Positions 5,572-39,320 of a stretch of DNA of 45,859 bases are shown here, piece by piece. The stretch is taken from assembly GCA_043798995.1 (NCBI GenBank), contig JAZDOD010000004.1:1-45859 (forward strand), written 5' to 3'. The DNA comes from a bacterium. Its GTDB lineage: Bacteria > Patescibacteriota > Patescibacteriia > JAACEG01 > JAGUWE01. The notes beneath the pieces are model-generated. The model did not search any database. It was not told the origin of the DNA and saw only the letters and a list, made by a program, of their open reading frames with translations. A program made the position numbers and the translations under genes. Position 1 is the first letter of the stretch; the number at the start of each line of letters is the position of its first letter.

Positions 5572-5627
5572 TGTTTTTCCTCCTTTTTAAAGGTTACTTT
5601 ATTTTTTTACCGCCCATAATTAGTTAG

Positions 5628-5693
5628 GTTGTCAAGGAACAAAAAAATTAAAAGAGTTTAAAAAACATTACAAGTTATTGAGATTTAAGTCAA
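5628..5693 (-). promoter_or_regulatory. Sigma70 promoter plus boxA-like motif
   Basis: TTGACT(5693-5688)-17-TAATGT(5670-5665); GTTCCTTGACAAC at 5640-5628. Confidence 0.6.
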
Positions 5694-5790
5694 GGGGTCG
5701 TCAAAAATCAGCTCTCCGGCTCTTGCCAAAAATATAAAGTTATGCTATTATTATAATTGTTTAAATTAAATTAATTATTTGGTTATTTTT

Positions 5791-6069
5791 ATGAAAAAAG
5801 ATATCCACCCAACTTACTACAAAGAGGCGGAAATTACTTGCGCCTGTGGCAATAAATTTGTTACCGGCTCAACTCAGCCTAAGGTTCATATTGAAATTTG
5901 TTCGGCCTGCCATCCGTTTTTTACCGGCAAACAGAAATTAATTGACACGGCTCGAAGGGTTGATAAATTTCAAAAACGATTGGAAAAACAAGCAGAACTG
6001 GCTAAAGTTAAAATTGGCCGAAAGGCAAAAAAGGTTCGTCAAGTCAAGGCCAAAAAACAAGCTCAATAA
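5791..6069 (+). CDS. rpmE: 50S ribosomal protein L31
   Basis: [23 protein letters not shown]. Confidence 0.98.
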
Positions 6070-6144
6070 CACTTTTACCCTGCGACGATTTGCTTTTTTA
6101 TTTTTTAAAAAGGCAAAATTCCAAGCAGGGTTTTTATATATTTT

Positions 6145-7182
6145 ATGATAAAAGAAATTCAAAATATCAAAAAAGATTATCAAAAATTAAAAAATCAGCT
6201 GGAAGACCCTGCTATTTTTAGTGATGCGCAAAAACTTAAGGAAATAACCCGCCAGTTTAATGAAGTTAAGGAAAAATATGAAATTTTAGAAAAATTGGAA
6301 AAAGTAGAAGGGGCAATTAAAGAGACAGAATTAACTTTACGAAACGAGCCGGAATTAAAATTATTGGCCGAGGAAGAGCTGAAAAATCTTATTAATGAAA
6401 AAGATAATTTAGAAACAAAATTTTCAGAATTGCTTTTACCCCAGGATCCTTTGGATAAAAAAAATGCGATTTTGGAAATCCGAGCCGGCACCGGCGGAGA
6501 AGAATCGGCTTTGTTTGCGGCTAATCTTTTCCGAATGTACAGCCGCTATGCCGAAAGAAAAGGCTGGCAAGCCAAACTTATTAATAAAAGCCAAACGGCT
6601 TTAGGCGGTTTTAAAGAAGTGATTTTTGAAATTAAAGGCGATAAAGTATATAAGGATTTAAAATACGAAGCCGGTACCCACCGGGTTCAACGAATTCCGG
6701 AAACAGAAAAATCAGGCCGCGTTCACACCTCGGCAGCGACCGTGGCGGTTCTGCCGGAAGCCGAAGAAATTGACATTAAAATTGAAACTAAAGATTTGCG
6801 GATTGATACTTTTTGCGCTTCGGGGCATGGCGGACAAAGCGTTAACACCACTCATTCGGCAGTACGCATCACTTACCTACCGACAAATCTCATTGTCAGC
6901 TGCCAGGACGAGAGAAGCCAGCTACAAAATAAAGAACGCGCCATGCAAATCTTACGCGCCCGCCTTTTTGAGCAAAAATTGGAAAAAAGACAATCTGAAG
7001 AGAAACAAAAAAGAAAATTAATGGTTGGCAGCGGAGACCGCAGCGAAAAAATCCGCACTTATAATTTTCCGCAGGATAGGGTGACTGATCATCGCCTTAA
7101 AAAATCTTGGCATGCCATTGATAGAATCATGGACGGAGAAATCGAAGAAATTATTGAGTCATTAAAACAAGCCGACAAATAA
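6145..7182 (+). CDS. prfA: Peptide chain release factor 1
   Basis: PET tripeptide (RIPETE), GGQ motif, RTYNFPQDR; next to prmC. Confidence 0.98.
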   Translation: MIKEIQNIKKDYQKLKNQLEDPAIFSDAQKLKEITRQFNEVKEKYEILEKLEKVEGAIKETELTLRNEPELKLLAEEELKNLINEKDNLETKFSELLLPQDPLDKKNAILEIRAGTGGEESALFAANLFRMYSRYAERKGWQAKLINKSQTALGGFKEVIFEIKGDKVYKDLKYEAGTHRVQRIPETEKSGRVHTSAATVAVLPEAEEIDIKIETKDLRIDTFCASGHGGQSVNTTHSAVRITYLPTNLIVSCQDERSQLQNKERAMQILRARLFEQKLEKRQSEEKQKRKLMVGSGDRSEKIRTYNFPQDRVTDHRLKKSWHAIDRIMDGEIEEIIESLKQADK

Positions 7183-7183
7183 A

Positions 7184-8158: not shown

Positions 8159-8166
8159 GGAAGTAA

Positions 8167-9216
8167 TTATTTATATCCAATTAAAGTATCGGCCGAAACG
8201 ATTTCAATCCAAGTTATGCCGCGGTTTAATTCAATTTCATTTGAATTGACATCTAAAAAGATGGTTCTTTCTTTCCGGTTGCTTCTTTTCCAAAAACCTG
8301 TTTTTGCCTGGCCGTCCATGAAAAAAAGCGCCTTGCCCTGCCCAATGGTAGTAATATCGCGCCGGCCGACCTCGTCAATAACCTTAACAATCGCGTATTG
8401 AATAATAATATTTCTACTTCTGACTTCCTCACCGCTATCGGTTAAATATTTTTCATTTGCCTGAAAGCGAAGATAGTCATTTTTTTCTTGATCATAGCGC
8501 CAATTGACCTTGTAAAGAGGCGTTGAAAAATTAATTTCAATGTCCTGAGAATTAGGCCGCAAATTTTTTTCTAAATCTTCTTTGTAGCGCCAATTATCGT
8601 AATTTGGCGTTTTGTCTTTAATTAAATCTTCTTTTGCTCCCTTAAGCAAAGCTGAGGAAGTATAAACGTTATGAGGAGCTGTTCTATTAGCGCTTCGCCA
8701 GAAATATTGACTTTGAAAATATTGGTCTAAATCAATAACCCCTTCATTTTTAATTTTATTAAGCGCTTCAGGTGAACCGCCGACATGGGCTAAAATCGCG
8801 TCATATTCCTCGGCCCAATCAATAAAATAAGCCCTAGCCGAACGAACCGGGCCAATTTTATCAATAATTTCGTCGGTGGCATAAATGACTAAAAAACGAG
8901 TGATGCCGGCTTCGGCTGTTGTTTCATAAATTAAATTTGCTTTATTAATCCCGGCTAGCGGCCAGGCATCAGCGCTGTTTTCAATTACAACCGCAACCGG
9001 ATATAAATCCTGATAAGAAGACATTAAAAGCCCGTCAATTAAACGGGCTTTTTTTGGTTCAATATTTAAATTTTGATTGGCTAAAATTGAAGTATTGGTA
9101 ACCGGGGTTAATTTTTCTTGGGGTAAAAAATTTATAAAAAAGCAAAAAGCAACTCCGGCCAGAACTAACAAAATTATTAAAATCAGTAAAAAACTAACTT
9201 TCCCTTTCTTAGCCAT
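8167..9216 (-). CDS. DUF3048 (YerB-like) membrane-anchored protein
   Basis: N-terminal TM; PVAVVIEN, EAGITRF, IGPVRSAR, APHNVY. Confidence 0.85.
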   Translation of the reverse strand: MAKKGKVSFLLILIILLVLAGVAFCFFINFLPQEKLTPVTNTSILANQNLNIEPKKARLIDGLLMSSYQDLYPVAVVIENSADAWPLAGINKANLIYETTAEAGITRFLVIYATDEIIDKIGPVRSARAYFIDWAEEYDAILAHVGGSPEALNKIKNEGVIDLDQYFQSQYFWRSANRTAPHNVYTSSALLKGAKEDLIKDKTPNYDNWRYKEDLEKNLRPNSQDIEINFSTPLYKVNWRYDQEKNDYLRFQANEKYLTDSGEEVRSRNIIIQYAIVKVIDEVGRRDITTIGQGKALFFMDGQAKTGFWKRSNRKERTIFLDVNSNEIELNRGITWIEIVSADTLIGYK

Positions 9217-9229
9217 AAAATCAAGTTTC

Positions 9230-9871: not shown

Positions 9872-9887
9872 ATTGTATGATAGTTTT

Positions 9888-10314: not shown

Positions 10315-12039
10315 CTAAGAATTAAATTTGATAATTTCGCCGGGTTTTAAGTTTTTTTCCTCATCTCTTGATTTAGCTTCAGTTTTTGGCGCATCAAACT
10401 GCTCTTTTTTATTCAGCCGAAAAGAAACCGGTTTTTGTTTGATAATATCTTTTAAGGAGATTTCTTTGGACGAGTTGACAGGTTCCCTTCTTTCGCTTTT
10501 TAAGATTATATTTTCTGTTTTTTTGTTTTTTAATTCTCTTAGGCAATCTTTGCAATAAACCGGCCTGACATTATCCGGTTCAAATGAAACAAAAGTAGTT
10601 TTTCCGCAGTTAGAGCAGGTGGCCTCATATTTTTTCGAAAAATCACTTATCCTCATCGCCCCGGTATAATTTCTTTCTTTTTTTTCCGGCTCGGAGGCAT
10701 TTTTTTTATTTTTTTCCGGTTCTCTTTTTTCTTCTTCATTATTTTCGTCCATACCTGTCCAGCGAGCGATTTTTTCCTCAATTAAAGCTCGGGGCTTGGC
10801 GTAACGTTCGCGACTAACCTTAATGATTTTTTCAAGATTAGATAATTCCGTTGTTGGTTCAAGGGGCGGTAAAGTGGTGGCTGAAAACGGCTCCGAGGAA
10901 ACACCATCAATCATTAATTTCACATAAATATCATATTTAGCTAAATTAACCAGATCTTCTTCCATAAAACGCGGGGTAAATTCTTTAACTAAGTATTCGG
11001 CGTCAGACGCTCCGACCCTGAAACAAGCAATGGTGCCAACATTGCCGAAAACCGCAGCCTGCACTTTTTCATCAAGTTGTTCAATGTATTGATGCGCAAT
11101 AATCAAATTTAAGCGGTATTTTCTGGCTTCGGATAAAATATTAGCAAATGATTCGGTGGCAAAATTCTGGAATTCATCAACATAAAGATAAAAATCTTGT
11201 CTCTGACTTTCAGAAACATTAATACGTTCCATAGCCGATAATTGAATTTTAGTAATCATCATGGCTCCTAAAAGACTGGAAATATCTTCTCCTATTCTAC
11301 CTTTTGCTAAATTAACCAACAAGATTTTTTGATTATCAATGATTTCTCTGATATCAATCGATGATTTGGTCTGGCCAATAATATTTCGACTAATCGGATT
11401 GGAAATGAATTGTCCAACCTTATTTTGAATTGGATTAATAGCTTCTACTTGAAAGGTGCCGGAATATTTTGTATATTCTTCAGTCCAAAATGATTTAATA
11501 ATCGGATCTTGAACTTTATCAATAACTTTTTTGCGATAATTTTTATCAATTAAAATTCTCATAATACCCAATAAAGTGCTGCCCGGATAATCCATTAAAG
11601 CCAAAATAGCATTGCGTAAAACATATTCCAAGCGTGGACCCCAAGTATCGGCCCATAGTTTTTTAAAAATACCGATTAATCCCGAGGATACTAAGTGTCT
11701 AACCCCAATATCAGCGGCTTCTAAAACATTAAAAGCAATCGGCCATTCAAGATCGGCTGGATTAAAATAAACCACATCGTTAATTCTTGAGGAAGGAATA
11801 AAATTGATAACCTTTTCCACCAAATCACCATGGGGGTCAACTACGGCTACGCCGCGGCCAGAGCGAATATCCTGGATAATCATATTTTCCAGCATAGTTG
11901 ACTTGCCAACACCGGTTTTCCCAATAACATACATATGGCGCCGACGATCGTCTTGTTTAATGCCAAAACGAATCCGTTGGTTGCGGAAGTTAGTTTCGGC
12001 AAAAAGCACTATTTTGTTTTTATTATCTATTTGGTCCAT
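10315..12039 (-). CDS. VirD4/TraG/HerA-like P-loop ATPase with a C-terminal CxxC-x17-CxxC domain
   Basis: DRRRHMYVIGKTGVGKS (Walker A), VDPHGD, LYVDEFQNF (Walker B), SEARKY; CSNC...PVYCKDC. Confidence 0.9.
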   Translation of the reverse strand: MDQIDNKNKIVLFAETNFRNQRIRFGIKQDDRRRHMYVIGKTGVGKSTMLENMIIQDIRSGRGVAVVDPHGDLVEKVINFIPSSRINDVVYFNPADLEWPIAFNVLEAADIGVRHLVSSGLIGIFKKLWADTWGPRLEYVLRNAILALMDYPGSTLLGIMRILIDKNYRKKVIDKVQDPIIKSFWTEEYTKYSGTFQVEAINPIQNKVGQFISNPISRNIIGQTKSSIDIREIIDNQKILLVNLAKGRIGEDISSLLGAMMITKIQLSAMERINVSESQRQDFYLYVDEFQNFATESFANILSEARKYRLNLIIAHQYIEQLDEKVQAAVFGNVGTIACFRVGASDAEYLVKEFTPRFMEEDLVNLAKYDIYVKLMIDGVSSEPFSATTLPPLEPTTELSNLEKIIKVSRERYAKPRALIEEKIARWTGMDENNEEEKREPEKNKKNASEPEKKERNYTGAMRISDFSKKYEATCSNCGKTTFVSFEPDNVRPVYCKDCLRELKNKKTENIILKSERREPVNSSKEISLKDIIKQKPVSFRLNKKEQFDAPKTEAKSRDEEKNLKPGEIIKFNS

Positions 12040-20862: not shown

Positions 20863-20890
20863 TTGACAAATATAAAAAAAGCTGTATTTT
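20863..20890 (+). promoter_or_regulatory. Sigma70-like promoter
   Basis: TTGACA-16-TATTTT upstream of the small ORF at 20951. Confidence 0.45.
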
Positions 20891-20950
20891 AAAAGAAAGA
20901 CAATTTTTTTTAAAAGAATAACACGCACCTTATAATTAAGGAGGGGTAAA

Positions 20951-21082
20951 ATGGGAAGAAGGCGCAAAAAATATTATAGTGACCTTTATAGGTCAATCAA
21001 AAACCGAATTAGTTGGCCTTATTATGTGTCTATTATGTTTATAACTTCCCTGATTCTCTGCTGTATCGTCCCCGGGGAATAA
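20951..21082 (+). CDS. 43-aa basic/hydrophobic peptide (not in the ORF track)
   Basis: AAGGAGG SD; MGRRRKKYYSDLYRSIKNRISWPYYVSIMFITSLILCCIVPGE*; own promoter and terminator. Confidence 0.6.
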   Translation: MGRRRKKYYSDLYRSIKNRISWPYYVSIMFITSLILCCIVPGE

Positions 21083-21174: not shown

Positions 21175-21612
21175 TTATTTCTTAGCATTTGGATCGTCTT
21201 TTTCTTTGGTTTTTTTAAAATGATTAATGACTAAACCGGTAGCGGTCACGGCAGCGGCCAAGGCCCCGACTTTTATGGCGGTGTGAAAATTGGGGCTTTG
21301 AAAAATTTTCTGAACTTTCTCTCTCAAATAAAAAAATTTTTCTTTTAAACCCTTACCGCTGATTTCTCGGTCCAGCTTTTCAAATAGCTCTTTAATGATT
21401 AAATCATCTTTTTTATCCCAGCCGACTAATTCCTTAAGGGGAGGTGTGACTGATTCTGGGAAAAGAACACCCTCAACAATGGCGTGAAAAAGTTGATGAT
21501 CATCTTTGCTTTTACGGCTAAGCTGCAATAAAAAAACCGCCTTTTTGATTTTTTCAATCTCTTCTTTTGAAAGTCCCGCCACATGGCTTTTAAATTCATT
21601 CATTTCTCTCAT
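21175..21612 (-). CDS. Hypothetical protein with a C-terminal hydrophobic anchor
   Basis: AAGGAG SD before ATG 21612; C-terminal IKVGALAAAVTATGLVI. Confidence 0.7.
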   Translation of the reverse strand: MREMNEFKSHVAGLSKEEIEKIKKAVFLLQLSRKSKDDHQLFHAIVEGVLFPESVTPPLKELVGWDKKDDLIIKELFEKLDREISGKGLKEKFFYLREKVQKIFQSPNFHTAIKVGALAAAVTATGLVINHFKKTKEKDDPNAKK

Positions 21613-21778
21613 TTCTTTTCTCCTTTTGTTTTTGATCCAATCTTTTTTTCTTTCTAATTTTGCCCGAAACGGCTTGACCGCAGGAACTAACTCTGCCGGC
21701 ACCAGAAAAAAGCGCTTTCAAGGAAACGTTGACAGTTTTACCATCGCCTTCAAAGTCGTAAAGTTTTATCTTTTTCAA
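21596..21778 (-). CDS. Small basic hypothetical protein
   Basis: AAGGAGG SD then TTG at 21778; 60 aa, overlaps the next gene. Confidence 0.45.
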   Translation of the reverse strand: MKKIKLYDFEGDGKTVNVSLKALFSGAGRVSSCGQAVSGKIRKKKRLDQKQKEKRNERNE

Positions 21779-21800
21779 TTTTTCCCTCCTTGTTTCTAAT

Positions 21801-21857
21801 TTTCTAAAGAACAAATCTTAATTCCTTATATCTTAATCATTTTATTAAAAATGTCAA
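21801..21857 (-). promoter_or_regulatory. Sigma70 promoter plus boxA-like motif
   Basis: TTGACA-16-TAAGAT; GTTCTTTAGAAA at 21812-21801. Confidence 0.6.
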
Positions 21858-21883: not shown

Positions 21884-21910
21884 AAAAAGTGACTCAAAAT
21901 GAGTCACTTC
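21884..21910 (-). terminator. Intrinsic terminator
   Basis: AAGTGACTCA/TGAGTCACTT stem with a T-rich tail on the minus strand. Confidence 0.75.
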
Positions 21911-21918
21911 TAAAAAAA

Positions 21919-22404
21919 TTATTTTTTCTCCGTCCATTTTGTTGCTTCTTTAATATCAGAAAGGTCGCTTACTATCAGCATTTCTTTTTTGCCTGACATT
22001 ACGATTTCAAGCGGCGTGGGCACGCGATAAACCTTGCCCGGCGGCAGCCAAAATCCGGCTCGATCAACGCCGCTCTGGGCACAATCCCATCTTAGGCAGC
22101 CAACTAATTGAAGCGGGTCTTTGTTGAAAATAACCGCATGGGGAGGGATGGCAAAATCTTTGTTTTTTGGCGTGTAGAGAGTAATTGGATAACCAATAAA
22201 GATTGATTTCCCGCACCAAGCACACTGAATTGCCATTTTCTCAAGGCAACGATGGCAATATTCTACCTTGCCATCTTCATCGGGCTTTATGGTCGTAATT
22301 GTTGTCTCGCCAAAAGCCGAAACTTCGTCTTTGAGCTTTATTTCATGCCCGCATTGAGCAATGATCTTTTTCGGTCCAAAAATCTTTTTGAAGATGTTCT
22401 TCAT
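21919..22404 (-). CDS. Cys/His-rich hypothetical protein
   Basis: GAGGAGGTG SD; CGH, CHRC, CAWC, CLRWDC. Confidence 0.75.
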   Translation of the reverse strand: MKNIFKKIFGPKKIIAQCGHEIKLKDEVSAFGETTITTIKPDEDGKVEYCHRCLEKMAIQCAWCGKSIFIGYPITLYTPKNKDFAIPPHAVIFNKDPLQLVGCLRWDCAQSGVDRAGFWLPPGKVYRVPTPLEIVMSGKKEMLIVSDLSDIKEATKWTEKK

Positions 22405-22421
22405 CTATCTCACCTCCTCAT

Positions 22422-22814
22422 TTAAAACCCTTTAAAAACCGTTTGTTTAAAAACCGTCGGGGAATAAACCTCCGCAAACTTTTTTTCTTTAAGAACTATT
22501 TCTTGCAACATATAAAAAGCATTGCCAACCAAAGCCCGGCGCGCGATCTCATCGTCCTTGTATATTTCAAATTCCTCTTGGTATCTCGCCATCAGTTTCT
22601 GGCATTCTCCTAATATTGGATTTTTAGCCGAAGCTCTTTTAACTACCTTGTCAATATCTTCTAAAATATTTTGCCGAGCTTCTGCCAGCCAATAACCGCC
22701 GTCCTCAGCTGCTGATTTTAAGCTCTCCTCGGAATCCTTAAGAATCTCCTTAATATTCTTTACTGGATTTTTCACTTTTCGTTTCTTTCCCAACTTACTA
22801 TTTTTTACTTTCAT
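22422..22814 (-). CDS. Hypothetical protein
   Basis: GAGGAGG SD; 130-aa ORF in an operon. Confidence 0.7.
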   Translation of the reverse strand: MKVKNSKLGKKRKVKNPVKNIKEILKDSEESLKSAAEDGGYWLAEARQNILEDIDKVVKRASAKNPILGECQKLMARYQEEFEIYKDDEIARRALVGNAFYMLQEIVLKEKKFAEVYSPTVFKQTVFKGF

Positions 22815-22850
22815 CTTTACCTCCTCTTTTTGGTTTATATACCCGATATT

Positions 22851-23174
22851 CTAAAAAAAGCCGGTATAGAGACTCTTCCATATCCTGTAATTTTCCCACA
22901 ATTTCTTCTGTTCGGGATTTAACGAGTTCTCAAGTTTTCCCATTGAGTTTCCTAAATTTTTATCTAGACAATCCAGACAAATTTTATGTTTTTTTGGCAA
23001 ATGACTTACCTTTTTGCCGCATTGCAGACAAATTGACTCCCAAGATCTAAGACATAATACGTCTTTCATGCAATCAAGACAATAGATATTTTCCTTGGGG
23101 ATCAAGCCAATTTTCTCGCATCTTAAACATTTTCCTTCATACACTTTAAAAACTTCTTCCAATTCTTCTGCCAT
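22851..23174 (-). CDS. Hypothetical protein with two tandem Zn-ribbon-like repeats
   Basis: AGGAGG SD; CLRC..CLDC and CLQC..CLDC. Confidence 0.7.
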   Translation of the reverse strand: MAEELEEVFKVYEGKCLRCEKIGLIPKENIYCLDCMKDVLCLRSWESICLQCGKKVSHLPKKHKICLDCLDKNLGNSMGKLENSLNPEQKKLWENYRIWKSLYTGFF

Positions 23175-23204
23175 TTTCTCCTCCTTTTTTGGTTAGGGTT
23201 TTAT

Positions 23205-23254
23205 TTGTTTAATGAACGATTAACTTATTTTAGCCAGATTTACTTTTTTGTCAA
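23205..23254 (-). promoter_or_regulatory. Sigma70 promoter plus boxA-like motif
   Basis: TTGACA-16-TAAAAT; GTTCATTAAACAA at 23217-23205. Confidence 0.6.
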
Positions 23255-25749: not shown

Positions 25750-25862
25750 AGGTTTATAATTATTAAATTATTTTCATTTTCCCTCTTTATTGCCATTTTA
25801 TCACTAAAAATTCTTTATTTCAACCAACAATGCTAAACGCGGACAAATAAAAAAGCCGATTC

Positions 25863-26156
25863 TTATTGAGAACCGGCGAAGTTGAGTTCGAGTTGTTTTG
25901 TTTTAATTTTTTTTGATTTTTTAGGCCGCGGCCTATGGCTTTTAACTATCTTGGGATGTCCTGCCGGCTTGACTGTTACTTCCTTGCCGTATTTTTTGGC
26001 CGCTCTTTTCTTGGCAAAGGCCAGGGCCATATTTTCAGCCGCTTGAAAAGAAAATGTTTCAAAAATCTTGTTGACCCATAACTGATCTGTTATCAATATC
26101 TCGTGTTCGTCATAAACTTTGAACCTTTGGGTTACCTTTAAATAATATTCGCGCAC
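25863..26156 (-). CDS. Hypothetical basic protein
   Basis: AGGAG SD; GTG start overlaps the upstream TAG; ends in QLELNF. Confidence 0.65.
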   Translation of the reverse strand: MREYYLKVTQRFKVYDEHEILITDQLWVNKIFETFSFQAAENMALAFAKKRAAKKYGKEVTVKPAGHPKIVKSHRPRPKKSKKIKTKQLELNFAGSQ

Positions 26157-26329
26157 TATTTTTTCTCCTGCTTTTCGAGAAGTTCTTTAAGCGCCCAGTT
26201 CGCCACTGGCTCTGGGCCGTTTTTGGCGATCCACCAAAGATCGTCGTTACTATAATTTACCTTAGACCTGTTCCAGGCCCCTTGTATCAAACCCTCCATA
26301 AAATCTCCGACTTTTGTTAAAGCGGGCAT
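26156..26329 (-). CDS. Small hypothetical protein (57 aa; not in the ORF track)
   Basis: TAAGGAGG SD; MPALTKVGDFMEGLIQGAWNRSKVNYSNDDLWWIAKNGPEPVANWALKELLEKQEKK*. Confidence 0.65.
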   Translation of the reverse strand: MPALTKVGDFMEGLIQGAWNRSKVNYSNDDLWWIAKNGPEPVANWALKELLEKQEKK

Positions 26330-26351
26330 AAATCCTCCTTATTGAATGTTT

Positions 26352-26399
26352 TTTTCAAAGATTTCAAAATATCATACATCAGAAAAATTTCGCTGTCAA
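26352..26399 (-). promoter_or_regulatory. Sigma70 promoter plus boxA-like motif
   Basis: TTGACA-17-TATGAT; AATCTTTGAAAA at 26363-26352. Confidence 0.65.
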
Positions 26400-28131: not shown

Positions 28132-28176
28132 TGTGGATAACTTTCGGTTTATTTTCGGTATCACTTGTGTTATAAT
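28132..28176 (+). promoter_or_regulatory. lexA promoter: DnaA-box-like 9-mer, TTCGG-N6-TTCGG direct repeat, extended -10
   Basis: TGTGGATAA 28132-28140; TTCGG 28143-47 and 28154-58; TGtTATAAT ends at 28176, 6 nt before the ATG. Confidence 0.65.
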
Positions 28177-28182
28177 ATAAAC

Positions 28183-29721
28183 ATGCTTACCAAACGCCAA
28201 AAACAAATATTGGACTTCATCAAATCTTTCCAAAAAAAGAAGGGGTATTCACCTACTCTTGAGGAAATTGGAAGAAAGTTTAAGCTTTCCTCCGTTGCAA
28301 CTATCCATCAGCATATAAAAGCATTAAAAGAAAAAGGATATTTACAGAAACAAAAAAATCAGAAAAGAGCTATTGATGTAATAAGGCGCGACGAAATAAT
28401 TAAAATTCCAATAGTAGGCACTATCGCCGCTGGCCAACCCATAGAGGCAATAGAGGTTCCCAGCGATACAATTGCGGTAACCAAAAATGAAATCGGCAAA
28501 TTCGGCAATCATTATGCTTTACGTGTTCAAGGTGACAGTATGATTAACGATGGGATTTTTGACGGTGATATTGTTGTAATTCGAAAACAAGAAACTGCCG
28601 ACGATGGCCAGACAGTCGTAGCGATTATTGACGACAATGAAGCTACTCTAAAAAAAATTTATAGGGAAAAGTCACGTTTTAAATTACAACCGGCAAATCA
28701 ATCAATGTTGCCGATTTACCGTAAGGAGGTAGAAGTGCGAGGCGTTGTAGTCAAAATTGTAAGAAATTTAGAGAATGGCACCCAAGATAATACGCTCACC
28801 TATAAGAAAAAAACTTTTTTAGACCGCATAAAAAGTTCTAATCCAAATAGTCAAAATAAATACAAAAGAGTTGCTCTTTCCCCTATTAGATATGCTGGGG
28901 GGAAAAGTTTGGCAGTTGGACATGTTATTGAGCTATTACCTGACAATACAAAAAAGGTTGTTTCGCCATTCTTTGGCGGTGGCTCAATTGAAATAGCTAT
29001 AAGTAAAGAGCTTGGCCTAGAAGTTATTGGCTATGATATTTTTGACATCCTTTGTAATTATTGGAAATTTCAAATAGAAAAACCGGAACTTCTTTGTAAA
29101 AAACTGAAAGAATTAAAACCCAATAAAAAAACTTTTGAAAAAATAAGATTGATTTTAAATGATGTTTGGAAAAAGAAAATAAAATTAGATCCGCTGACTT
29201 TGGCGGTCTATTATGTTTATAACTTTAATTTATCCTATGGCCCGGGGTTTATGGGTTGGTCGTCTGATATTTACTTAAATGATAAAAAATACAAAAGAAT
29301 GATAGAAAACATCCGGGATTTTGACCCGAAAAATCTAAAAGTAGAATGTGCGGATTTCCAAGAAGTAATTAAAAATCACCCCAACGACTTTCTTTATTGC
29401 GACCCTCCCTATTATATTGGTAAGGATTCAAAAATGTTTAAGGGGATTTATCCAATGAGAAATATTCCCGTTCACCACAACGGATTTTCTCATGAAGCTC
29501 TGCGAGATTTATTAAAAAGCCACAAAGGAGGTTTTATCCTTTCGTATAATAACTGCCCAACAACAAGAGAATACTACAAAGAATTTCAGCAGTTCTTCCC
29601 CTCCTGGCAATATACTATGGGTCAAGGAGAAACGAGAATAGGACTAAACAGGAAAAATGGTAACGGCAGCCATGTAAAAGAATCTCACGAAATAATTATT
29701 TTTTGCCCGCCAAAAAATTAA
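28183..29721 (+). CDS. lexA: LexA repressor fused to a Dam-like (D12-class) DNA adenine methyltransferase
   Basis: LTKRQKQILDFI..GYSPT..EI HTH, IAAGQP cleavage site, GDSM, ATLKK; then PIRYAGGKS, SPFFGGGS, YCDPPY in the same frame. Confidence 0.92.
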   Translation: MLTKRQKQILDFIKSFQKKKGYSPTLEEIGRKFKLSSVATIHQHIKALKEKGYLQKQKNQKRAIDVIRRDEIIKIPIVGTIAAGQPIEAIEVPSDTIAVTKNEIGKFGNHYALRVQGDSMINDGIFDGDIVVIRKQETADDGQTVVAIIDDNEATLKKIYREKSRFKLQPANQSMLPIYRKEVEVRGVVVKIVRNLENGTQDNTLTYKKKTFLDRIKSSNPNSQNKYKRVALSPIRYAGGKSLAVGHVIELLPDNTKKVVSPFFGGGSIEIAISKELGLEVIGYDIFDILCNYWKFQIEKPELLCKKLKELKPNKKTFEKIRLILNDVWKKKIKLDPLTLAVYYVYNFNLSYGPGFMGWSSDIYLNDKKYKRMIENIRDFDPKNLKVECADFQEVIKNHPNDFLYCDPPYYIGKDSKMFKGIYPMRNIPVHHNGFSHEALRDLLKSHKGGFILSYNNCPTTREYYKEFQQFFPSWQYTMGQGETRIGLNRKNGNGSHVKESHEIIIFCPPKN

Positions 29722-31705: not shown

Positions 31706-32371
31706 TTAAGAACTTTTTTTGATTATATTCTCCACCGCGGCCCAGCGGCTTTTGCAGTCTTTAGGCGCTAAAACCACTGTCTCATCCCCTGCTTCGCCTT
31801 TAAAATAAGTTACCGAAGCAGTCAAGACCTTCCATTTTTGATCGCCTAAAACCACATAATACTGGCTCTTGGCTTCATTAAAAATTAAGCTGCCGATTAT
31901 CCTTTCGCGTTCAACCGGGCCGATTTGCTTAAAGATAAATGAGCCGTCTTTGTGGATGGTCAGCTTTAAAATATCGCCTTCCACCAGTTTTGATTTTGAA
32001 GCGTAGTTAGCCGGCACCGAATAAATTTTGCCATCCGGTCCGACCATATTTTGGCCGTCAAAAACTCCCTCAATAATTTTTTCGCCGGCTTTGCCGGTTT
32101 TAATTTCCGGTTTGATAGCGGCTAATTTATCCGAACTGAATTCCAACTCAACTTCGCCGCTGCCAAGATCAACTTCTTCAATTAAGTTAAGAAGCTGGGT
32201 TGTTTCATTTTTGATTTTTTGCAAACCGGCTTTTAATTCTATGATATTAATTTTAGCTTTAACCGGAGCTTTTTCTTCTTTTTTCTTGCCTTTTGTTTCT
32301 TCCGGCAATTCCAAATCATCCAGCTCATCCAGAATGTCTTTTGTTTTTTTGTTTTTGGTTTCGCTTGTCAT
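31706..32371 (-). CDS. Conserved hypothetical protein
   Basis: IIEGVFDGQNMVG, YSVPANYASKSKLVEGD, FKQIGPV, VLTASVTYF. Confidence 0.8.
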   Translation of the reverse strand: MTSETKNKKTKDILDELDDLELPEETKGKKKEEKAPVKAKINIIELKAGLQKIKNETTQLLNLIEEVDLGSGEVELEFSSDKLAAIKPEIKTGKAGEKIIEGVFDGQNMVGPDGKIYSVPANYASKSKLVEGDILKLTIHKDGSFIFKQIGPVERERIIGSLIFNEAKSQYYVVLGDQKWKVLTASVTYFKGEAGDETVVLAPKDCKSRWAAVENIIKKSS

Positions 32372-32479: not shown

Positions 32480-34987
32480 TTACGCATTAATATTGACGCG
32501 TTTGAGGATTTCTGCTTCAACCAGGGCTAAATCACGGCCGTATTTTAAGCGGGAAAGCTGTCTAATTTTTTCACTGCGATCTTCATCGCCTCTTTCTAAG
32601 GGCAAAGTCAACATATTAAATGGCCGGGCCGATTGATTATCAATCAAGAGTTTAACATAAGCGTTATATTTTTCAATATTAATCAAATCACGCTCATTAA
32701 AAACCGGGGCAAATTCCTGGGCAATAAATTTGGCGTCCTCCGCCCCGATTTTAAAAGTAATCATAGTGCCGACATTGCCAAAGACCGCATCGCGGATTGA
32801 GCTGTCCTGCCCCTTAACTAATTGGCCGATATACTGATGGGCAATAATCAGGTCAAGATGATATTTTCTCGCTTCAGACAAAATAATGGCAATGCTGTCG
32901 GTAATAAAATTCTGGAATTCATCCAGATAAAGATAAAAATCGCGCCGCTTTTCCTGATCCAGATCCGTCCGGCTTAAGGCAGCCATTAAAATCTTGCCAA
33001 CCAAAACCATGCCGATTAAATAAGCGTTTAAATCGCCCAGTTTGCCTTTGGCCAAATTAACAATTAAAATTTTGCCTTCATCCATAATTTGCCGCAGATT
33101 AAAGGCGCTTTTTTGCTGGCCGATAATAGGCCGCATCATATCATTGGCCACAAAGGCGTTGAGTTTGGAAGTAACATAAGGCACCACATTGGCCAAAGCC
33201 GCTTCGCCGCCGGCTTTTTCCGCTTCTTTTTGCCAAAAATCCTTGACTACCGGATTTCGGCAGTTGCTTAATTTCAAGCGGCGAAAATCAGCTTCGGCTA
33301 AAACCTTGGGAATTTCCATTAAAGTACTGCCTGACTGCGGATGATCCATCACTAACAGCATGGCGTTTCTCATATATTGTTCAAATATCGGCCCGCCGGT
33401 CTGTTTTAGATCATAAAGTTTGTCAAAAATCTTAATCATTTCATTAATGACAAAAGTTTTTTGTTCAGGATATTTTGGATCGTATTCCAAAAGATTTAAA
33501 CCCATCGGCCGTGGAGTATCGGCCGGATAAAAGTAAATTACATCCTCGGCCCGTTCGGCTGGAATTTGCTCTAAAATATCGTTGGCTAAATCCCCGTGCG
33601 GATCAACAACGCAAAGCCCTGCGCCGGCTTTTATATCCTGAACGGCCATATTAGCAATCAAAACCGATTTGCCGACACCGGATTTACCAATAATATAAAC
33701 ATGGCGGCGGCGATCAGTTTTTCCAATACGGATTAAATTTTCTTCGCCGCGGAAAATATTTTTACCCAAAATAACGCCTTCCGCGGGAATGTTAAGCGGT
33801 GCCGGCGCTCGTTTGGCCGCCAGCCATAAAATATTCGGCGTTTCGGTTCCGGGCAGGGGAAAATGAAAAATGCTGGCAACTTCCTCGCAATTGAGAAGCA
33901 TTTTTTTTCTTTCATCAAAGTTGCGGTAAATAAAATTACGGATGATTTTTTTATTATTTTTTAATCTTTTAAGGCGAAATGAATTGCCGTACTGATAAAT
34001 ATTGTATTGAGGGAAAGCGTCCAAAATATTATTTAAGTACATCTCGGCGCGAGTCGGGTTTTCCGAAGAAACAACAATCCTTATATTAACATCCAAACCG
34101 GCTTTGGACGTTTTTTCTTCCAGGTTTTTAACCAGTTCTTCTTCCATAGGCGAAAGCCGGTATGGCTCCTGATAAGGATTTTTTTTCTGCATTTGCTTTT
34201 GGGCATTGGCGCCGCCGCCGATTAGCATATGCCCCACTTCCTGCCAGAACGGATGACCGCCAACGCCGGTTGAATTGGCTGATTTCATTGCTTCTTTTAA
34301 AGGTTTGCCCTGCTTCATCTGGCTGGCAATTTTAGCTCCCCAGGCATGCCACTGGGCTTTGGCCGAACGAATTGTTATCTGAATGGCGGCGCCTTCATTT
34401 TTTTGAAGTTTTGAAAGCGAATTGGTTAAAGAATTCAAAGGATCAGAATTTAATTTTTTGTAAGTTTTAATCGGGAAAATATAGGGTTTGACTTGAGTAA
34501 TAATGGCGGTTTTAATAACGCCGCGGGGCGAAAAAATATTATAGTCAGTTACTTTTTCAATCAATGCCTCCTGATATTGGGCATGAATTTCCTGTTCCAG
34601 AAATCTTTCCAGATAATGCGGCACGGCCACAAAAAAATAAATAATGCCTTTGTGCGAAACGATTTCCAAGGTAATGTGATCAGAACGGCCGAAAAGCAGG
34701 GCCTTAAAACCGCGCTGAGCCCGAATACCGCCTAAACTGCTAAAGAGAGATTCGGCTAAGCCAATTTTTTCCTGGATGGCCTGAAGAGAAGCAAACTTAG
34801 TTGAATCTTGGTCTTTGGTGGACTCCTTTGGCAAAGTGACTAAAAAAAGTGTTTTTTGAAAAGCATAGGGCAGCCAGCCGCGCCTTCTTAAAACAAAACG
34901 GACAACTAAAATACCAACAAAAACAAAAATAACAATGAGGATAAATATCATTGTTAAATAAATTAAAATTGTGGTTTGATTTTCCAT
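32480..34987 (-). CDS. Membrane-anchored VirD4/TraG-like ATPase (fused form)
   Basis: N-terminal TM; LEIVS, FPIKTY, EEVASIFHFP; DRRRHVYIIGKSGVGKS, DPHGD, LDEFQNF, SEARKY. Confidence 0.9.
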   Translation of the reverse strand: MENQTTILIYLTMIFILIVIFVFVGILVVRFVLRRRGWLPYAFQKTLFLVTLPKESTKDQDSTKFASLQAIQEKIGLAESLFSSLGGIRAQRGFKALLFGRSDHITLEIVSHKGIIYFFVAVPHYLERFLEQEIHAQYQEALIEKVTDYNIFSPRGVIKTAIITQVKPYIFPIKTYKKLNSDPLNSLTNSLSKLQKNEGAAIQITIRSAKAQWHAWGAKIASQMKQGKPLKEAMKSANSTGVGGHPFWQEVGHMLIGGGANAQKQMQKKNPYQEPYRLSPMEEELVKNLEEKTSKAGLDVNIRIVVSSENPTRAEMYLNNILDAFPQYNIYQYGNSFRLKRLKNNKKIIRNFIYRNFDERKKMLLNCEEVASIFHFPLPGTETPNILWLAAKRAPAPLNIPAEGVILGKNIFRGEENLIRIGKTDRRRHVYIIGKSGVGKSVLIANMAVQDIKAGAGLCVVDPHGDLANDILEQIPAERAEDVIYFYPADTPRPMGLNLLEYDPKYPEQKTFVINEMIKIFDKLYDLKQTGGPIFEQYMRNAMLLVMDHPQSGSTLMEIPKVLAEADFRRLKLSNCRNPVVKDFWQKEAEKAGGEAALANVVPYVTSKLNAFVANDMMRPIIGQQKSAFNLRQIMDEGKILIVNLAKGKLGDLNAYLIGMVLVGKILMAALSRTDLDQEKRRDFYLYLDEFQNFITDSIAIILSEARKYHLDLIIAHQYIGQLVKGQDSSIRDAVFGNVGTMITFKIGAEDAKFIAQEFAPVFNERDLINIEKYNAYVKLLIDNQSARPFNMLTLPLERGDEDRSEKIRQLSRLKYGRDLALVEAEILKRVNINA

Positions 34988-35003
34988 TTTTTTGTTTTTG
35001 GGA

Positions 35004-35555: not shown

Positions 35556-35673
35556 AGCTTTATATTATTATACAAATTTTAGCTTCTTTGGTCAATAAAG
35601 TAAAAATATGGTATAATACTTATCAACAACCCAACTATCAAATTTTAAATTTGAAATTCTAAATTTTAAATTG

Positions 35674-36600: not shown

Positions 36601-36616
36601 AATTAATTTAAAAGCA

Positions 36617-36648
36617 AAAAAATAAGCTCAAAACGGGCTTATTTTTTT
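36617..36648. terminator. Bidirectional terminator
   Basis: AAAAAATAAGCTC-AAAAC-GGGCTTATTTTTT between convergent corA and dus. Confidence 0.75.
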
Positions 36649-37613
36649 TATTTTAAAATCTTTTTTATTTCATCTAAGGTTTCAATCTGCACTAACTTTT
36701 GGCGAAGCCGAGTTGCGTTTTTGAGACCCTTGACATACCAGCAAAGATGTTTTTTGAGAATTGAAATAGCGTCGACGCGGGGTAATTTAAATGAAAGTTT
36801 GGCCTGCTTTAAGGCAATCTTAAAAATTTCCTTTTTTTTCGGCCGCTGATATTGCCCTGACTTCAAAAGATTGATTGTTTGGCTGATAATCCAAGGGTTG
36901 CCCAAGACCCCTTTGGCAAAAATCAGACCATCGGCGCCAGTTTCTTCTAATATTTTAATTGCCGCCTCCGGCGTGTAAAGTCCGCCGCTGGCAATAAGCG
37001 GTATCTTCAGATTTTCTTTGACCATTTTCATAATCTGATAATTAACCTGACCTCGGAAAAGCTGCGGATAGGTCCGTCCATGAAGAATCAAAGCATCCAA
37101 GCCGCAATTTTCCAAGCTTTTGGCAAATTTCAAAATTTCCTTTTCACTTTGAAAACCAAGGCGGGTTTTAACCGAAACCGGCAAATTGATTTCTTTTTTA
37201 ATTATTTCAATAATATAACAAGCTAAATCAAGATCTCTCATCAGCGAAACGCCATGACCGGCCTCAACCAAACGTCGGGCCGGACAGCCCATATTAATAT
37301 CAATGCCGTCTGGTTTAAATTTGCGGCTGATAATTTTTGCCGCCTTGGCCATTATTTCCGGCTGGCGGCCGAAAAGCTGAATGATAATCGGCCTTTCTTT
37401 GGCTGAAAAGCCGGCAATCGCCAAGGTTTTGTTATATTCATCGCGGCCGGATTTTCTCTGGCCATAAAACAAACCGTCGGCGCTAATCATTTCGGAAAAA
37501 ACAATTTCCGCCCCAAAATCCTTCGCAATTTGCCTGAAAGCGGAGTCGGTAATACCGCTCATCGGCGCCAAGCCAATGATCGGCCGCGGCAATTGTTGCC
37601 AAATATTTTTCAT
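36648..37613 (-). CDS. dusB: tRNA-dihydrouridine synthase (DusB/NifR3 family)
   Basis: LAPMSGITD, QLFG, DINMGCP, SVKTRLG, HGRT. Confidence 0.9.
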   Translation of the reverse strand: MKNIWQQLPRPIIGLAPMSGITDSAFRQIAKDFGAEIVFSEMISADGLFYGQRKSGRDEYNKTLAIAGFSAKERPIIIQLFGRQPEIMAKAAKIISRKFKPDGIDINMGCPARRLVEAGHGVSLMRDLDLACYIIEIIKKEINLPVSVKTRLGFQSEKEILKFAKSLENCGLDALILHGRTYPQLFRGQVNYQIMKMVKENLKIPLIASGGLYTPEAAIKILEETGADGLIFAKGVLGNPWIISQTINLLKSGQYQRPKKKEIFKIALKQAKLSFKLPRVDAISILKKHLCWYVKGLKNATRLRQKLVQIETLDEIKKILK

Positions 37614-39028
37614 TTTTTTACAATCTTTGTTCCTTCTTTAGTATCGGAAATTTTTCGAGGGAGAATAAGTTTAGATAAATTTTGATCAATTTCTTGACGC
37701 AGTCGATCGGATAATTGATATTTTTTTTCTTTCCGTGCTTTTTCATATTGTTTAATTTTTTCTTTGATATATTCAGTCAAAACCACTTCGGGTGGCTTAA
37801 CATTAAGATTTAATCCTAACACCTCGTCAAATTTTAGCAAAGTTGTCCTTTTGTCTTGGTCTTTTTCTTTAGTTTTAGTCACTTCCTGAGCTATAGTCAT
37901 TGCCTTAGGTAAATCCAAATTATTATTAATGGCGCTAATAAATTCCTCCAAATAATTTTTTAAAATTTTGCCCCGGCCTGTTTTCATTTCGCCAATTTTA
38001 AACCACAAACTGAACAAACTTTCCTGGGCCATTCGCAAACCCTCCCAAGAAAAGTCTAGCTTTTTTTGATAATGGGTCCCTAAACAAAAATATCTAAATG
38101 CCAAAGGTAAAAATTTCTGTGCGGGAGGTGAAGTTATTTTTTCGTCTAAATCCCTCAGGGTAATAAAATTGCCGGCTGATTTAGCCATTTTTTGGCCGTC
38201 AACTAAAATATGCTCGCTGTGGAGAAAAAAATTAACTAATTTTTTTGCGCCATAACCGGTAATGCTTTGGGCAATTTCATTTTCATGGTGCGGAAAGCGC
38301 AAATCAACTCCGCCGGTGTGGATATCAAAAGGAATGCCTAAATACTCTTGGCTCATGGCACTGCATTCAATATGCCAACCCGGCCGGCCGGGAGAGTTTT
38401 TGCCCTGCCAATTAAAATTCCAAAATGGTTCGCCAACTTTTCTTGCCTTCCATAAAGCAAAATCTTGAAGCGCTTCTTTTTCATATTCATCATTTTCCAT
38501 TCTTTCGCCCTGCTTAAGTTGGTTTAAATCTAAATCAACTAATTGCCCGTATTTAAAATTTTTGGCGTATTTAGCAACATTAAAATAAAAAGAGCCGTCT
38601 TTTTCATAAGCAAAGCCGGCCTGAACAATTTTTGTGATCAACTCCTGCATCTGGGAAATAAACTCGGTGGCCTGCGGAATTTTATTTGGCCTTTGAATGT
38701 TTAAGCTGGCTAAATCCTGCCAAAACGTCTTTTCGTATTTGGCAGTTAATTTTTTTAATGCTTCTTTGGGAGCTAAATCAGGATAATCTTTTTGCGAATC
38801 ACGGATGGTCTTATCATCCACATCAGTTATGTTCATCACCCAGTTGACTTTTAGGCCATTAAATTTCAAGATTCGTTGCAAAAGATCGGCTACCACAAAG
38901 GCCCGTAAATTGCCGATATGGGCGTAGTTATAAACCGTCGGCCCGCAGGAATAAATGCCAACTTGGCCTTTTTTTATCGGCTTAAATTCTTCTTTTTTGC
39001 GAGTGAGGGTGTTGTAAAATTTTAGCAT
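37610..39028 (-). CDS. cysS: Cysteine--tRNA ligase
   Basis: CGPTVY, HIGN, GRPGWHIECSAM, HHENE, KMAKS; start ATG 39028. Confidence 0.98.
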   Translation of the reverse strand: MLKFYNTLTRKKEEFKPIKKGQVGIYSCGPTVYNYAHIGNLRAFVVADLLQRILKFNGLKVNWVMNITDVDDKTIRDSQKDYPDLAPKEALKKLTAKYEKTFWQDLASLNIQRPNKIPQATEFISQMQELITKIVQAGFAYEKDGSFYFNVAKYAKNFKYGQLVDLDLNQLKQGERMENDEYEKEALQDFALWKARKVGEPFWNFNWQGKNSPGRPGWHIECSAMSQEYLGIPFDIHTGGVDLRFPHHENEIAQSITGYGAKKLVNFFLHSEHILVDGQKMAKSAGNFITLRDLDEKITSPPAQKFLPLAFRYFCLGTHYQKKLDFSWEGLRMAQESLFSLWFKIGEMKTGRGKILKNYLEEFISAINNNLDLPKAMTIAQEVTKTKEKDQDKRTTLLKFDEVLGLNLNVKPPEVVLTEYIKEKIKQYEKARKEKKYQLSDRLRQEIDQNLSKLILPRKISDTKEGTKIVKK

Positions 39029-39040
39029 ATATTTCACAAT

Positions 39041-39147
39041 GTCATTGCGAGGAGTCCGCCAACTGGCGGACGACGAAGCAATCCCGTTCAAATCCGCTTA
39101 AATACGAGATTGCCACGCTCCGACTTGGCGTCGGAGCTCGCAATGAC
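39041..39147. repeat. REP-like palindromic element GTCATTGCGAG...CTCGCAATGAC with nested hairpins
   Basis: Perfect 11-bp terminal IR; inner GCAATC/GATTGC stem; TCCGCC-AACT-GGCGGA and CTCCGAC/GTCGGAG hairpins. Confidence 0.85.
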
Positions 39148-39242
39148 CAAAAAGCGAGTCTTTGGACAGTCTATTAAAATGACATTTATATTTTTAATTT
39201 TTAAATTGTTAATTACTTGATGTGTAACTATTATACCTCTGC

Positions 39243-39316
39243 TTGACAAATTTTCCAAATTCCGCTATATTAATTTGTTATACTACAACAAATAAATGCT
39301 TTTTGACAAAGGAGGG
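39243..39316 (+). promoter_or_regulatory. Sigma70 promoter, boxA-like motif and SD
   Basis: TTGACA-17-TATATT; TGCTTTTTGACAAA 39297-39310; GGAGG. Confidence 0.65.
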
Positions 39317-39320
39317 ATAA

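Follow-up and report, generated by a model that had tools for sequence, protein, structure and literature searches.

BoxA elements and the Nus factors are textbook parts of ribosomal RNA (rRNA) and phage-lambda transcription, regulation of ordinary genes by BoxA and Nus factors is known for a handful of cases per genome, and BoxA in CRISPR leaders protects untranslated arrays from Rho. Here we describe BoxA-like motifs in messenger RNA (mRNA) leaders of a bacterium of the candidate phyla radiation (CPR, Patescibacteria). The window analysed covers contig C7 from its first base to base 45,859; the assembly (G000) totals 765 kb in 12 contigs, at ~38% G+C. An initial annotation of this window had reported five dispersed loci, each with a near-consensus promoter, a related 12-14-mer and a strong Shine-Dalgarno (SD) sequence, and had proposed that they form a distinct class of antiterminated units beside an SD-poor core. 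All five loci are as described, and the class is borne out genome-wide: the loci belong to a set of about 40 self-contained transcription units, in each of which a near-consensus sigma70 promoter is followed by the 12-nt leader motif yGYTCTTTrAAA and a strong SD; the units comprise one to six accessory or orphan genes and end, in the cases inspected, in a terminator.

The BoxA consensus in use is GYTCTTTAANA, and the same study describes BoxA in the mRNA 5' untranslated regions of suhB, rpsJ, prsA and a ParE-like toxin gene of Escherichia coli and Salmonella (Baniulyte 2017, PMC5725501). At suhB, loading of the Nus complex represses translation, even from beyond 50 nt, and Rho completes the repression; genomes of the Gammaproteobacteria have 0-7 strict BoxA matches each, and few targets per species are expected (PMC5725501). 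NusB-NusE recognises eight nucleotides of the element, with transversions at G2, C5 and U6 not tolerated and U8 stacking on NusB F122 (Stagno 2011, PMC3177189). With respect to translation, the closest described cases are the Bacteroidia, whose ribosomes are SD-blind with the anti-SD kept and rpsU as the rare SD-led gene (PMC7797042, PMC9976891, PMC13000453), and the part of the Parcubacteria that has lost the anti-SD (Tsurumaki 2022, PMC9297842); leaders and BoxA are not treated in the available portions of the latter paper. No description of BoxA-tagged SD leaders was found in the literature searched on boxA with NusB and Shine-Dalgarno, Patescibacteria or Candidate Phyla Radiation.

The window translates with the standard bacterial code and its genome, 94.5% complete, has a gene content of the CPR type, with DUF3048, a beta-propeller protein, type IV coupling-protein-like ATPases and few biosynthetic genes. 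Genes were called with a self-trained dicodon model; genes, starts and promoters all come from simple scripts of our own, and transcription starts, promoters and gene starts are predictions throughout. A strong SD was defined as AGGAG, GGAGG or AGGAGG 3-12 nt 5' of the start, and it precedes 64 of the 670 called genes (11 of 617 internal control positions). No SD-like 4-mer lies in the same interval in 552 of the 670, and direct reading of the leaders of dnaK, prfA, pyrH, grpE, dnaX and cysS agrees with the earlier view that the core genes lack an SD. The gaps between called genes contain another 44 combinations of SD, start and open reading frame (ORF), with low coding scores; with 34 of them included, the set comprises 98 SD genes and 606 non-SD genes (704 in total).

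The non-SD starts have a context of their own, A-rich from -6 to -4 with T at -2 (52%) and at -1 (70%), which indicates that they are mostly correctly placed; by eye, the placement also agrees with the known N-termini of DnaK and DnaJ. It is possible that the A/T context is an SD-independent initiation signal of the class. Examples in the window are dnaK (43488), prfA (6145) and GT4 (20182). The 16S rRNA gene is divided between two contig ends, and the 23S rRNA gene was not found in the assembly; the 3' end of the 16S retains the canonical anti-SD GGATCACCTCCTTTCT (CCTCCT kept). AGGAGG-N4-9-ATG sites number 30-222 per genome in 41 of 41 genomes of the class, which is therefore SD-poor as a whole. 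Like the Bacteroidia as portrayed in the sources above, the organism combines SD-poor genes with a canonical anti-SD, an A-rich start context and a small strong-SD minority. Unlike them, it has T at -1 and -2 of the non-SD context and an SD minority of ~14% of genes, not one gene; bS21, which sequesters the anti-SD there along with bS18 and bS6, was not found in the genome, and no BoxA link is described in those sources for the Bacteroidia. With the Parcubacteria, as far as that account goes, it shares a CPR lineage and weakened SD use, and it differs in keeping CCTCCT and a working-looking SD class.

Boxes resembling CGTTCTTTnAAAA are visible on direct reading in many of the 98 SD leaders. 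In sense SD leaders (7.7 kb) the heptamer G[CT]TC[TA]TT, chosen a priori, was counted 22 times, compared with five in non-SD leaders (37.8 kb; Fisher p 3e-13); its rate elsewhere is 0.3-0.5 per kb, and its reverse complement does not occur in the SD leaders. An unbiased expectation-maximisation (EM) search with zero or one occurrence per sequence (ZOOPS; -90 to -12, all 98 SD genes) returned TGTTCTTTGAAAA, with a log-likelihood (LL) of 138.5 against 32-52 in 12 shuffles. As this first matrix also caught -35 boxes (TTGACAA resembles TTTGAAAA), it was rebuilt on promoter-delimited leaders, which run from a recognised promoter to the start codon and are available for 38 of the 98 SD and 90 of the 606 non-SD genes. 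The 37 usable SD leaders gave TGTTCTTTAAAA (estimated occupancy 0.89; LL 111.9 against 24-36 in shuffles), and EM on 70 promoter-delimited non-SD leaders gave nothing convincing.

At a threshold of at least 8 bits the motif is present in 26 of the 37 SD leaders and in 2 of the 70 non-SD leaders (p 5e-14). Matches of at least 9 bits are found in 37 of 86 sense and 2 of 86 antisense sequences, and the motif is found at 5.35 per kb in SD leaders, compared with 0.34 per kb in the non-SD set. Training and testing on halves of the contigs gave an identical consensus both ways, with held-out matches in 31 of 98 SD and 23 of 359 non-SD leaders. Compared with the mRNA BoxA elements of the Gammaproteobacteria, which likewise lie 5' of an SD-led gene, the motif is here the rule for a whole class (the 26 of 37 promoter-defined units) in a genome ~6x smaller, with accessory or orphan genes as its targets and no Rho found.

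The box is present in the leaders of 41 of the 98 SD genes. The aligned sites read y1, G2 (87%), Y3 (84%), T4 (78%), C5 (92%), T6 (80%), T7 (97%), T8 (100%), followed by R, A, A, A; G2 and C5 occur together in 33 of the 41, and no second half-site or palindrome is found among them. The motif lies 0-56 nt from the -10 box and 0-72 nt from the SD, and this variable spacing fits a linear RNA site. The gap from the end of the motif to the SD is at most 25 nt in 21 of 37 sites (first matrix), and among the 41 aligned sites 20 are no more than 25 nt from the start codon.

The low information content of the motif and its location just 3' of promoters would also be expected of a DNA operator for a transcription factor, or of a chance or compositional artefact of AT-rich leaders. 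Either is extremely improbable, given that the motif is non-palindromic and strictly oriented, that its distance from the -10 box ranges so widely, and that the shuffles, the antisense strands, the non-SD leaders, the train/test split and the second genome described below all reject chance. A palindromic operator in particular was rejected, as the SD leaders contain no reverse-complement heptamers and the sites no half-site. Upstream of the promoters, a G-run (GTGGGGG-like) directly 5' of the -35 hexamer was seen by eye in ~8 of the 38 SD-unit promoters (e.g. contig C1 ~104000), and a shared motif 5' of the -35 box was borderline by EM (LL 46.8 against 28-38).

The five loci, and a sixth unit recognised here, are composed as follows; bit scores are those of the leader matrix unless stated.

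5665-5693 (-): Unit 1 promoter, TTGACT 5693-5688, 17 nt, TAATGT 5670-5665.
5630-5641 (-): Unit 1 BoxA-like motif TGTTCCTTGACA, 14.0 bits (12.9 bits with the matrix of relatives' rRNA leaders).
5579-5584 (-): Unit 1 SD AGGAGG, 7 nt before ATG 5571.
2655-5571 (-): Unit 1 genes, each preceded by an SD: orphans of 66, 102 and 54 aa, an orotidine monophosphate (OMP)-decarboxylase-like protein of 376 aa, an orphan of 65 aa and a phosphoribosyltransferase of 232 aa.
21830-21857 (-): Unit 2 promoter, TTGACA 21857-21852, 16 nt, TAAGAT 21835-21830.
21802-21813 (-): Unit 2 BoxA-like motif TGTTCTTTAGAA, 9.3 bits, exact match to GYTCTTT-N-AGGAGG.
21175-21790 (-): Unit 2 body, SD AGGAGG 21790-21785, TTG start 21778, 60-aa ORF to 21596.
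21702-21175 (-): Unit 2 second ORF, 175 aa, in a different frame, without an SD of its own, overlapping the 60-aa ORF by ~100 nt.
21125-21099 (-): Unit 2 terminator-like hairpin.
23227-23254 (-): Unit 3 promoter, TTGACA 23254-23249, 16 nt, TAAAAT 23232-23227, 11/12 to consensus.
23207-23218 (-): Unit 3 BoxA-like motif CGTTCATTAAAC, 9.9 bits.
21885-23185 (-): Unit 3 body, SD 23185-23180, SD-led orphans of 107 aa (with Cys pairs), 130 aa and 161 aa.
21911-21885 (-): Unit 3 terminator-like hairpin.
26371-26399 (-): Unit 4 promoter, TTGACA 26399-26394, 17 nt, TATGAT 26376-26371, 11/12 to consensus.
26353-26364 (-): Unit 4 BoxA-like motif AAATCTTTGAAA, 8.2 bits, the weakest of the five, without G2.
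25855-26339 (-): Unit 4 body, SD 26339-26334, ORFs of 57 aa and 97 aa.
25877-25855 (-): Unit 4 terminator-like hairpin.
39243-39271 (+): Unit 5 promoter, TTGACA 39243-39248, 17 nt, TATATT 39266-39271.
39297-39308 (+): Unit 5 BoxA-like motif TGCTTTTTGACA, 11.4 bits, abutting the SD.
39310-40173 (+): Unit 5 body, SD AGGAGG 39310-39315, three small SD-led ORFs of 70, 78 and 110 aa.
20863-21082 (+): sixth unit, new; promoter TTGACA, 16 nt, TATTTT at 20863-20890.
20924-20935 (+): sixth unit motif-like sequence CGCACCTTATAA, 10.4 bits.
20939-21082 (+): sixth unit SD AGGAGG 20939-20944 and 43-aa ORF 20951-21082.

At all five loci the gap from AGGAGG to the start is 4-7 nt; the start codon is ATG except at site 2, which has TTG. 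In a consensus promoter scan, the promoters of sites 2-4 are among the best promoter-like sites between 20500 and 27000. Together with the terminator-like hairpins that close units 2, 3 and 4, the presence of an own promoter marks these as self-contained mini-operons. The overlapping ORFs of Unit 2 may represent a frameshifted gene, a programmed shift or an assembly error. At Unit 1, CCCC at 5694-5697 adjoins the -35 hexamer.

The leader of Unit 2 contains a segment, GTTCTTTAGAAAATTAGAAAC (window 21785-21813), that is nearly identical to GTTTTCTAGAAAATTAGAAAC on contig C9 (~31990-32028), and the downstream products are unrelated. Paralogy of the genes behind the two leaders (site 2 and C9:32029) was ruled out, there being no protein similarity. 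The shared segment before unrelated genes hints that leaders, or parts of them, move between genes.

The SD-led genes differ in kind from the remainder. A Pfam family (E <= 1e-5) was assigned to 33 of the 98 SD genes and to 74 of 98 length-matched non-SD genes (p 6e-9), and 26 of the 41 box-bearing genes have none. Cysteine makes up 2.3% of SD proteins and 0.7% of controls (p 2e-5), and at least two CxxC motifs occur in 15 of the 98 SD proteins and 4 of the 98 controls. Orphan enrichment and cysteine-rich products, both predicted by the initial annotation, are thus upheld, while the membrane proteins that it had also expected are not enriched (hydrophobic segments in 23 of 98 SD proteins against 30 of 98 controls). 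Its description of the units as an orphan class applies in part, since pyr and pur genes, plsX and genes for radical-SAM enzymes and histidine kinases are members too. The members with an annotation have accessory functions; among them are aspartate carbamoyltransferase (ATCase), a dihydroorotate dehydrogenase (DHODH)-like protein, OMP decarboxylase, a phosphoribosyltransferase, glycinamide ribonucleotide synthetase (GARS) and a relative of aminoimidazole ribonucleotide (AIR) synthase. Further annotated members are PlsX, a CDP-alcohol phosphatidyltransferase, two radical-SAM proteins, two GAF histidine kinases, a DksA-type zinc finger, an RNA recognition motif (RRM) protein and Hsp20.

Several of these genes are narrowly distributed. 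The pyrB-like gene is found in 14 of 61 genomes and plsX in 2 of 41; the 107-aa protein of Unit 3 is found in one of 151 class genomes (none of the 150 others) and has two homologues, with 91% and 72% identity, among 5.8 billion proteins, which indicates a real gene of narrow distribution. SD genes have a GC content of 0.39 against 0.365 and a median dicodon score of 0.237 against 0.294 (p 1e-4), and the SD state occurs in blocks, an SD gene being followed by another one in 17 of 26 cases and a non-SD gene by an SD gene in 16 of 290. The patchiness, the composition, the clustering and the near-identical leader segments at site 2 and C9:32029 would all suit a reading in which origin and not function is the cause, the SD units being horizontally acquired accessory genes that keep their donors' expression signals. 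We consider this quite improbable as the explanation: it accounts for the SD and the composition and leaves the motif unexplained, unrelated donors would not share a single leader box, the promoters are of the rRNA-promoter type, and the box is kept in diverging orthologous leaders. With 41 of 41 class genomes SD-poor, no SD-rich donor is evident within the class either.

The motif is conserved in relatives, which were studied as a sample of mutually non-independent genomes; those named here include a congener (G001) and a member of a different family of the class with 34% GC (G035). The pyrB leader of the congener is otherwise unalignable with that of G000, and GAACTTTGACAA is kept in it directly before the SD. 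In both species a hairpin and then a T-tract lie between the promoter and the SD of the pyrB-like leader (G000:C6 ~20970-21060, L090; G001 L104), and in the window's genome there is a box on either side of the hairpin and T-tract. The hairpin is a possible attenuator. In the plsX leader, the -35 and -10 boxes and the island TTAAAAGGAGGyGCACTTTGAmA are kept between the two genomes, followed by a 6-nt indel and substitutions before the SD. A second SD-like sequence, AAAGGAGG, lies directly 5' of the plsX box and is co-conserved with it (G000:C3 27110-27170, L107; G001 L108); a short upstream ORF starting from TTG inside the box is conceivable.

Across the 41 class genomes, the pattern GYTCTTT-N1-30-AGGAGG has 218 matches, against 99 for a reversed control and 87 for a reversed-core pattern. 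The counts against these two controls are 13 vs 2 and 0 in G000, 7 vs 0 and 0 in G001, 21 vs 4 and 0 in G031, 24 vs 2 and 3 in G035, 20 vs 1 and 2 in G039 and 10 vs 0 and 2 in G015; some others of the 41 show no excess. As an independent replicate, the whole pipeline was run on 400 kb of G035 (64 SD and 292 non-SD genes). The non-SD start context there resembles that of G000 (T at -1 61%, A-rich -6 to -4), EM de novo returned GTTCTTTTAAAA (LL 105 against 24-33), and the matrix trained on G000 matched 21 of 64 SD leaders (0 antisense) and 6 of 292 non-SD leaders (p 1e-12). The BoxA consensus is the most significant leader motif of the whole genome, stands almost one-to-one with the rare strong-SD genes and recurs in a second family.

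The organism's own rRNA leader carries a related box. In the 16S leader (G000:C9 787-960 (-)), a TTGACA-17-TAAAAT promoter, of the same type as the SD-unit promoters, is followed by GAACTTTGACAATTAAAAAGTGATAGAAA, ~113 nt before the 16S rRNA gene. The box, GAACTTTGACAATT, scores 20.9 bits with a matrix built from the rRNA leaders of 15 relatives alone and is the genome's single best match; GAACTTTGACAA is conserved in the rRNA leaders of these 15 relatives. G2, C5 and T6-T8 are common to the rRNA box and the mRNA motif; the rRNA box has AA in place of YT at positions 3-4 and scores 8.4 bits with the first mRNA matrix. The motif is accordingly related, not identical, to the organism's rRNA boxA (GAACTTTGACAA against GYTCTTTRAAA), which is the outcome of the comparison that the initial annotation had asked for. 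The variant GAACTTTRA occurs in two SD leaders and also in the congener's pyrB leader.

NusB, S10, NusG and NusA are encoded in the genome. NusB aligns to solved NusB structures, with the BoxA-contact helix KFVNGVL kept, including the Phe aligned to E. coli F122, and the best-conserved motif positions, G2, C5 and U6-U8, include those critical for binding by NusB and S10. Like the BoxA of rRNA leaders in E. coli, Aquifex and, according to the available part of PMC13753749, Bacillus subtilis, the motif has the same consensus with the critical positions and would, judging from the predicted -10 boxes, be a single-stranded, promoter-proximal leader site on the sense strand, in a genome that encodes the factors and has a related box in its own 16S leader. 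It differs in standing in ~40 mRNA leaders beside strong SDs, in having GYTC vs GAAC, and in that Rho and SuhB were not found and neither a boxB nor a boxC partner was noted in the mRNAs.

From these sequence features we infer that the leader motif may well be an mRNA BoxA that loads NusB-S10, and with it Nus factors, onto the transcripts, a reading to which we give about an even chance. In such a mechanism, the BoxA of the nascent RNA would be bound by NusB and S10 (NusE), which together with NusG and NusA would join the polymerase during elongation in the way known from the rRNA leader, and the SD-dependent mRNAs would be coupled to the pool of free Nus factors. The output could be control over how ribosomes reach the neighbouring SD, for which E. 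coli suhB is the model, or the suppression of pauses and intrinsic terminators in the leader; the hairpin and T-tract between the two boxes of the pyrB leader bear on the latter option.

A number of observations weigh against assigning the motif to NusB-S10. The consensus departs from that of the organism's own rRNA box at positions 3-4 (GYTC, not GAAC), and the strict E. coli GYTCTTTAANA is present in just four SD leaders within 100 nt, a count within the 0-7 per genome of the Gammaproteobacteria. With the rRNA-leader matrix the five sites score 12.9, 3.5, 3.8, -1.6 and 5.2 bits, which speaks against sites 2-5; these rRNA-only scores, noise-like at four sites, were superseded by the GYTC version from the de novo search of SD leaders. 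Conservation of the rRNA box may be partly structural, because the box and the next 14 nt are complementary to sequence just past the 16S 3' end on contig C2 and so form part of a leader-trailer helix of ~26 bp. The mRNA matrix is low in information, with matches of at least 9 bits at 0.5-0.7 per kb in coding DNA. The core SD genes tuf (EF-Tu), rpsB (S2) and hsp20 lack the box, which therefore does not accompany the SD in general, and gap ORFs missed by the gene caller make up 34 of the 98 SD genes.

Familiar partners that were looked for and not found count on the same side. The SuhB family was not found in the 94.5% complete genome, Rho_RNA_bind (PF07497) has no match in the genome, and TIGR00767 is over its cut-off in none of 41 genomes (own and 40 relatives). 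Fifty of the SD units are single short genes, on which processive antitermination would have little to do. Of the two factors that the initial annotation had singled out, NusB is therefore present and Rho was not found, and since most units are short (1-3 genes), its proposal of antiterminated units in the classical, anti-Rho sense is unsupported; the output is probably not anti-Rho antitermination. As in CRISPR leaders, BoxA would here be used outside rRNA, unlike them on RNAs that are translated and in a genome where Rho was not found.

The motif might act instead as an anti-SD mimic in cis, its UCUUU core pairing with the AAAGGA of the SD region and occluding the SD, with Nus factors uninvolved. 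Such an element would resemble a fourU- or ROSE-like thermometer, with a pyrimidine stretch paired to the SD in a defined hairpin, or a translational attenuator. This reading, which we regard as unlikely, draws on a predicted pairing probability of motif positions 2-8 with the SD region of 0.40 against 0.14 in shuffled sequence (Wilcoxon p 2e-6), a further point against Nus loading; sites within 25 nt of the start codon pair at 0.53 against 0.18, and SD occupancy is 0.57 against 0.47. Half of the sites are more than 25 nt away, however, with pairing of 0.27, and the predicted pairing is weak and almost the same at 15 C. Neither G2 (87%) nor the A-rich 3' half has a pairing partner in AAAGGAGG; a perfect GGAGG complement would require C at position 4, which is T in 78% of sites, and CCUCC-type complements are not selected. 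The TTCATT variants have no compensating change in the SD flank, and there is no covariation. The pairing data also support a combined model in which protein binding competes with pairing.

That the motif is confined to SD-led mRNAs, is often near the SD and has a U- and A-rich context would be compatible with a site for another RNA-binding protein or a component of the ribosome that serves SD-dependent initiation directly. It could be a translational enhancer or a standby site of the S1 type, or be read by a lineage-specific factor, for instance the RRM-domain protein encoded by an SD-led gene at C7:49876-50178, an RRM_1 protein being encoded. The specific G2 and C5 and the exact BoxA consensus would be unexpected for a generic AU-rich enhancer, and a related box stands in the untranslated rRNA leader; we think this alternative distinctly unlikely.

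The T-rich core could also be a NusG-dependent pause signal (TTNTTT on the non-template strand) that holds the polymerase for ribosome loading. TTCTTT fits this pattern, NusG is encoded, and in B. subtilis ~20% of 1600 NusG-dependent pauses are in 5' leaders, according to the available portions of two studies (PMC11602163, PMC9963633). TTNTTT fits 13 of the 41 sites, by contrast with the 33 that have G2 and C5, which the pause signal does not need, and TT[AGT]TTT is not enriched (8.35 per kb in SD against 12.7 per kb in non-SD leaders). Pausing of this type was rejected as the explanation on these two counts and is very improbable.

Returning to BoxA recognition by NusB-S10, a broader proposal can be built on it. 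The class may run two translation regimes, with SD-independent initiation as the default of the core and SD-dependent initiation for accessory, often orphan, Cys-rich genes, all BoxA-tagged, and NusB-S10 as a global gate that opens or closes ribosome access by binding a box that could otherwise pair with the SD. We put this forward tentatively and hold it to be rather unlikely. If it is true, expression of ~5-14% of the genes would depend on how ribosome synthesis stands through NusB-S10, which is otherwise busy on a single rRNA operon, and a BoxA gate would operate in Rho-less bacteria, without the classical purpose of BoxA.

The class of units offers a handle on the expression of accessory and orphan genes in uncultured, ultra-small CPR bacteria, a group in which SD initiation is often weakened or lost, and a natural system for the role of NusB-S10-BoxA where there is no Rho to antagonise. 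It also suggests an annotation rule, in that promoter, box and AGGAGG together flag real small genes missed by composition-based finders, 34 such gap ORFs being found here.

Some further features of the window and genome were recorded. Searches of the window with Rfam at gathering thresholds found one tRNA and nothing else. On contig C2 (-), ~270-560 nt from the contig end (L046 ~8200-8480), a tRNA-Ile(GAT) identified by ARAGORN lies 3' of the 16S rRNA gene and inside an apparent second tRNA-Ile-like gene; the outer gene is split in the anticodon loop and has a palindromic insert in the T-arm. The window encodes two TraG/TrwB-type coupling-protein-like ATPases (10315-12039 and 32480-34987 (-)), one with a treble-clef zinc finger, and no other conjugation genes were recognised among its Pfam-annotated genes. 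The ORF at 28165-29721 (+), with a likely ATG at 28181, encodes 518 aa and joins a complete LexA (DNA-binding domain and S24 peptidase) to a Dam-type N6-adenine DNA methyltransferase (Pfam). Only 6 nt separate this ATG from an extended -10 box, TGTTATAAT, on its 5' side, so that a leaderless mRNA is possible.

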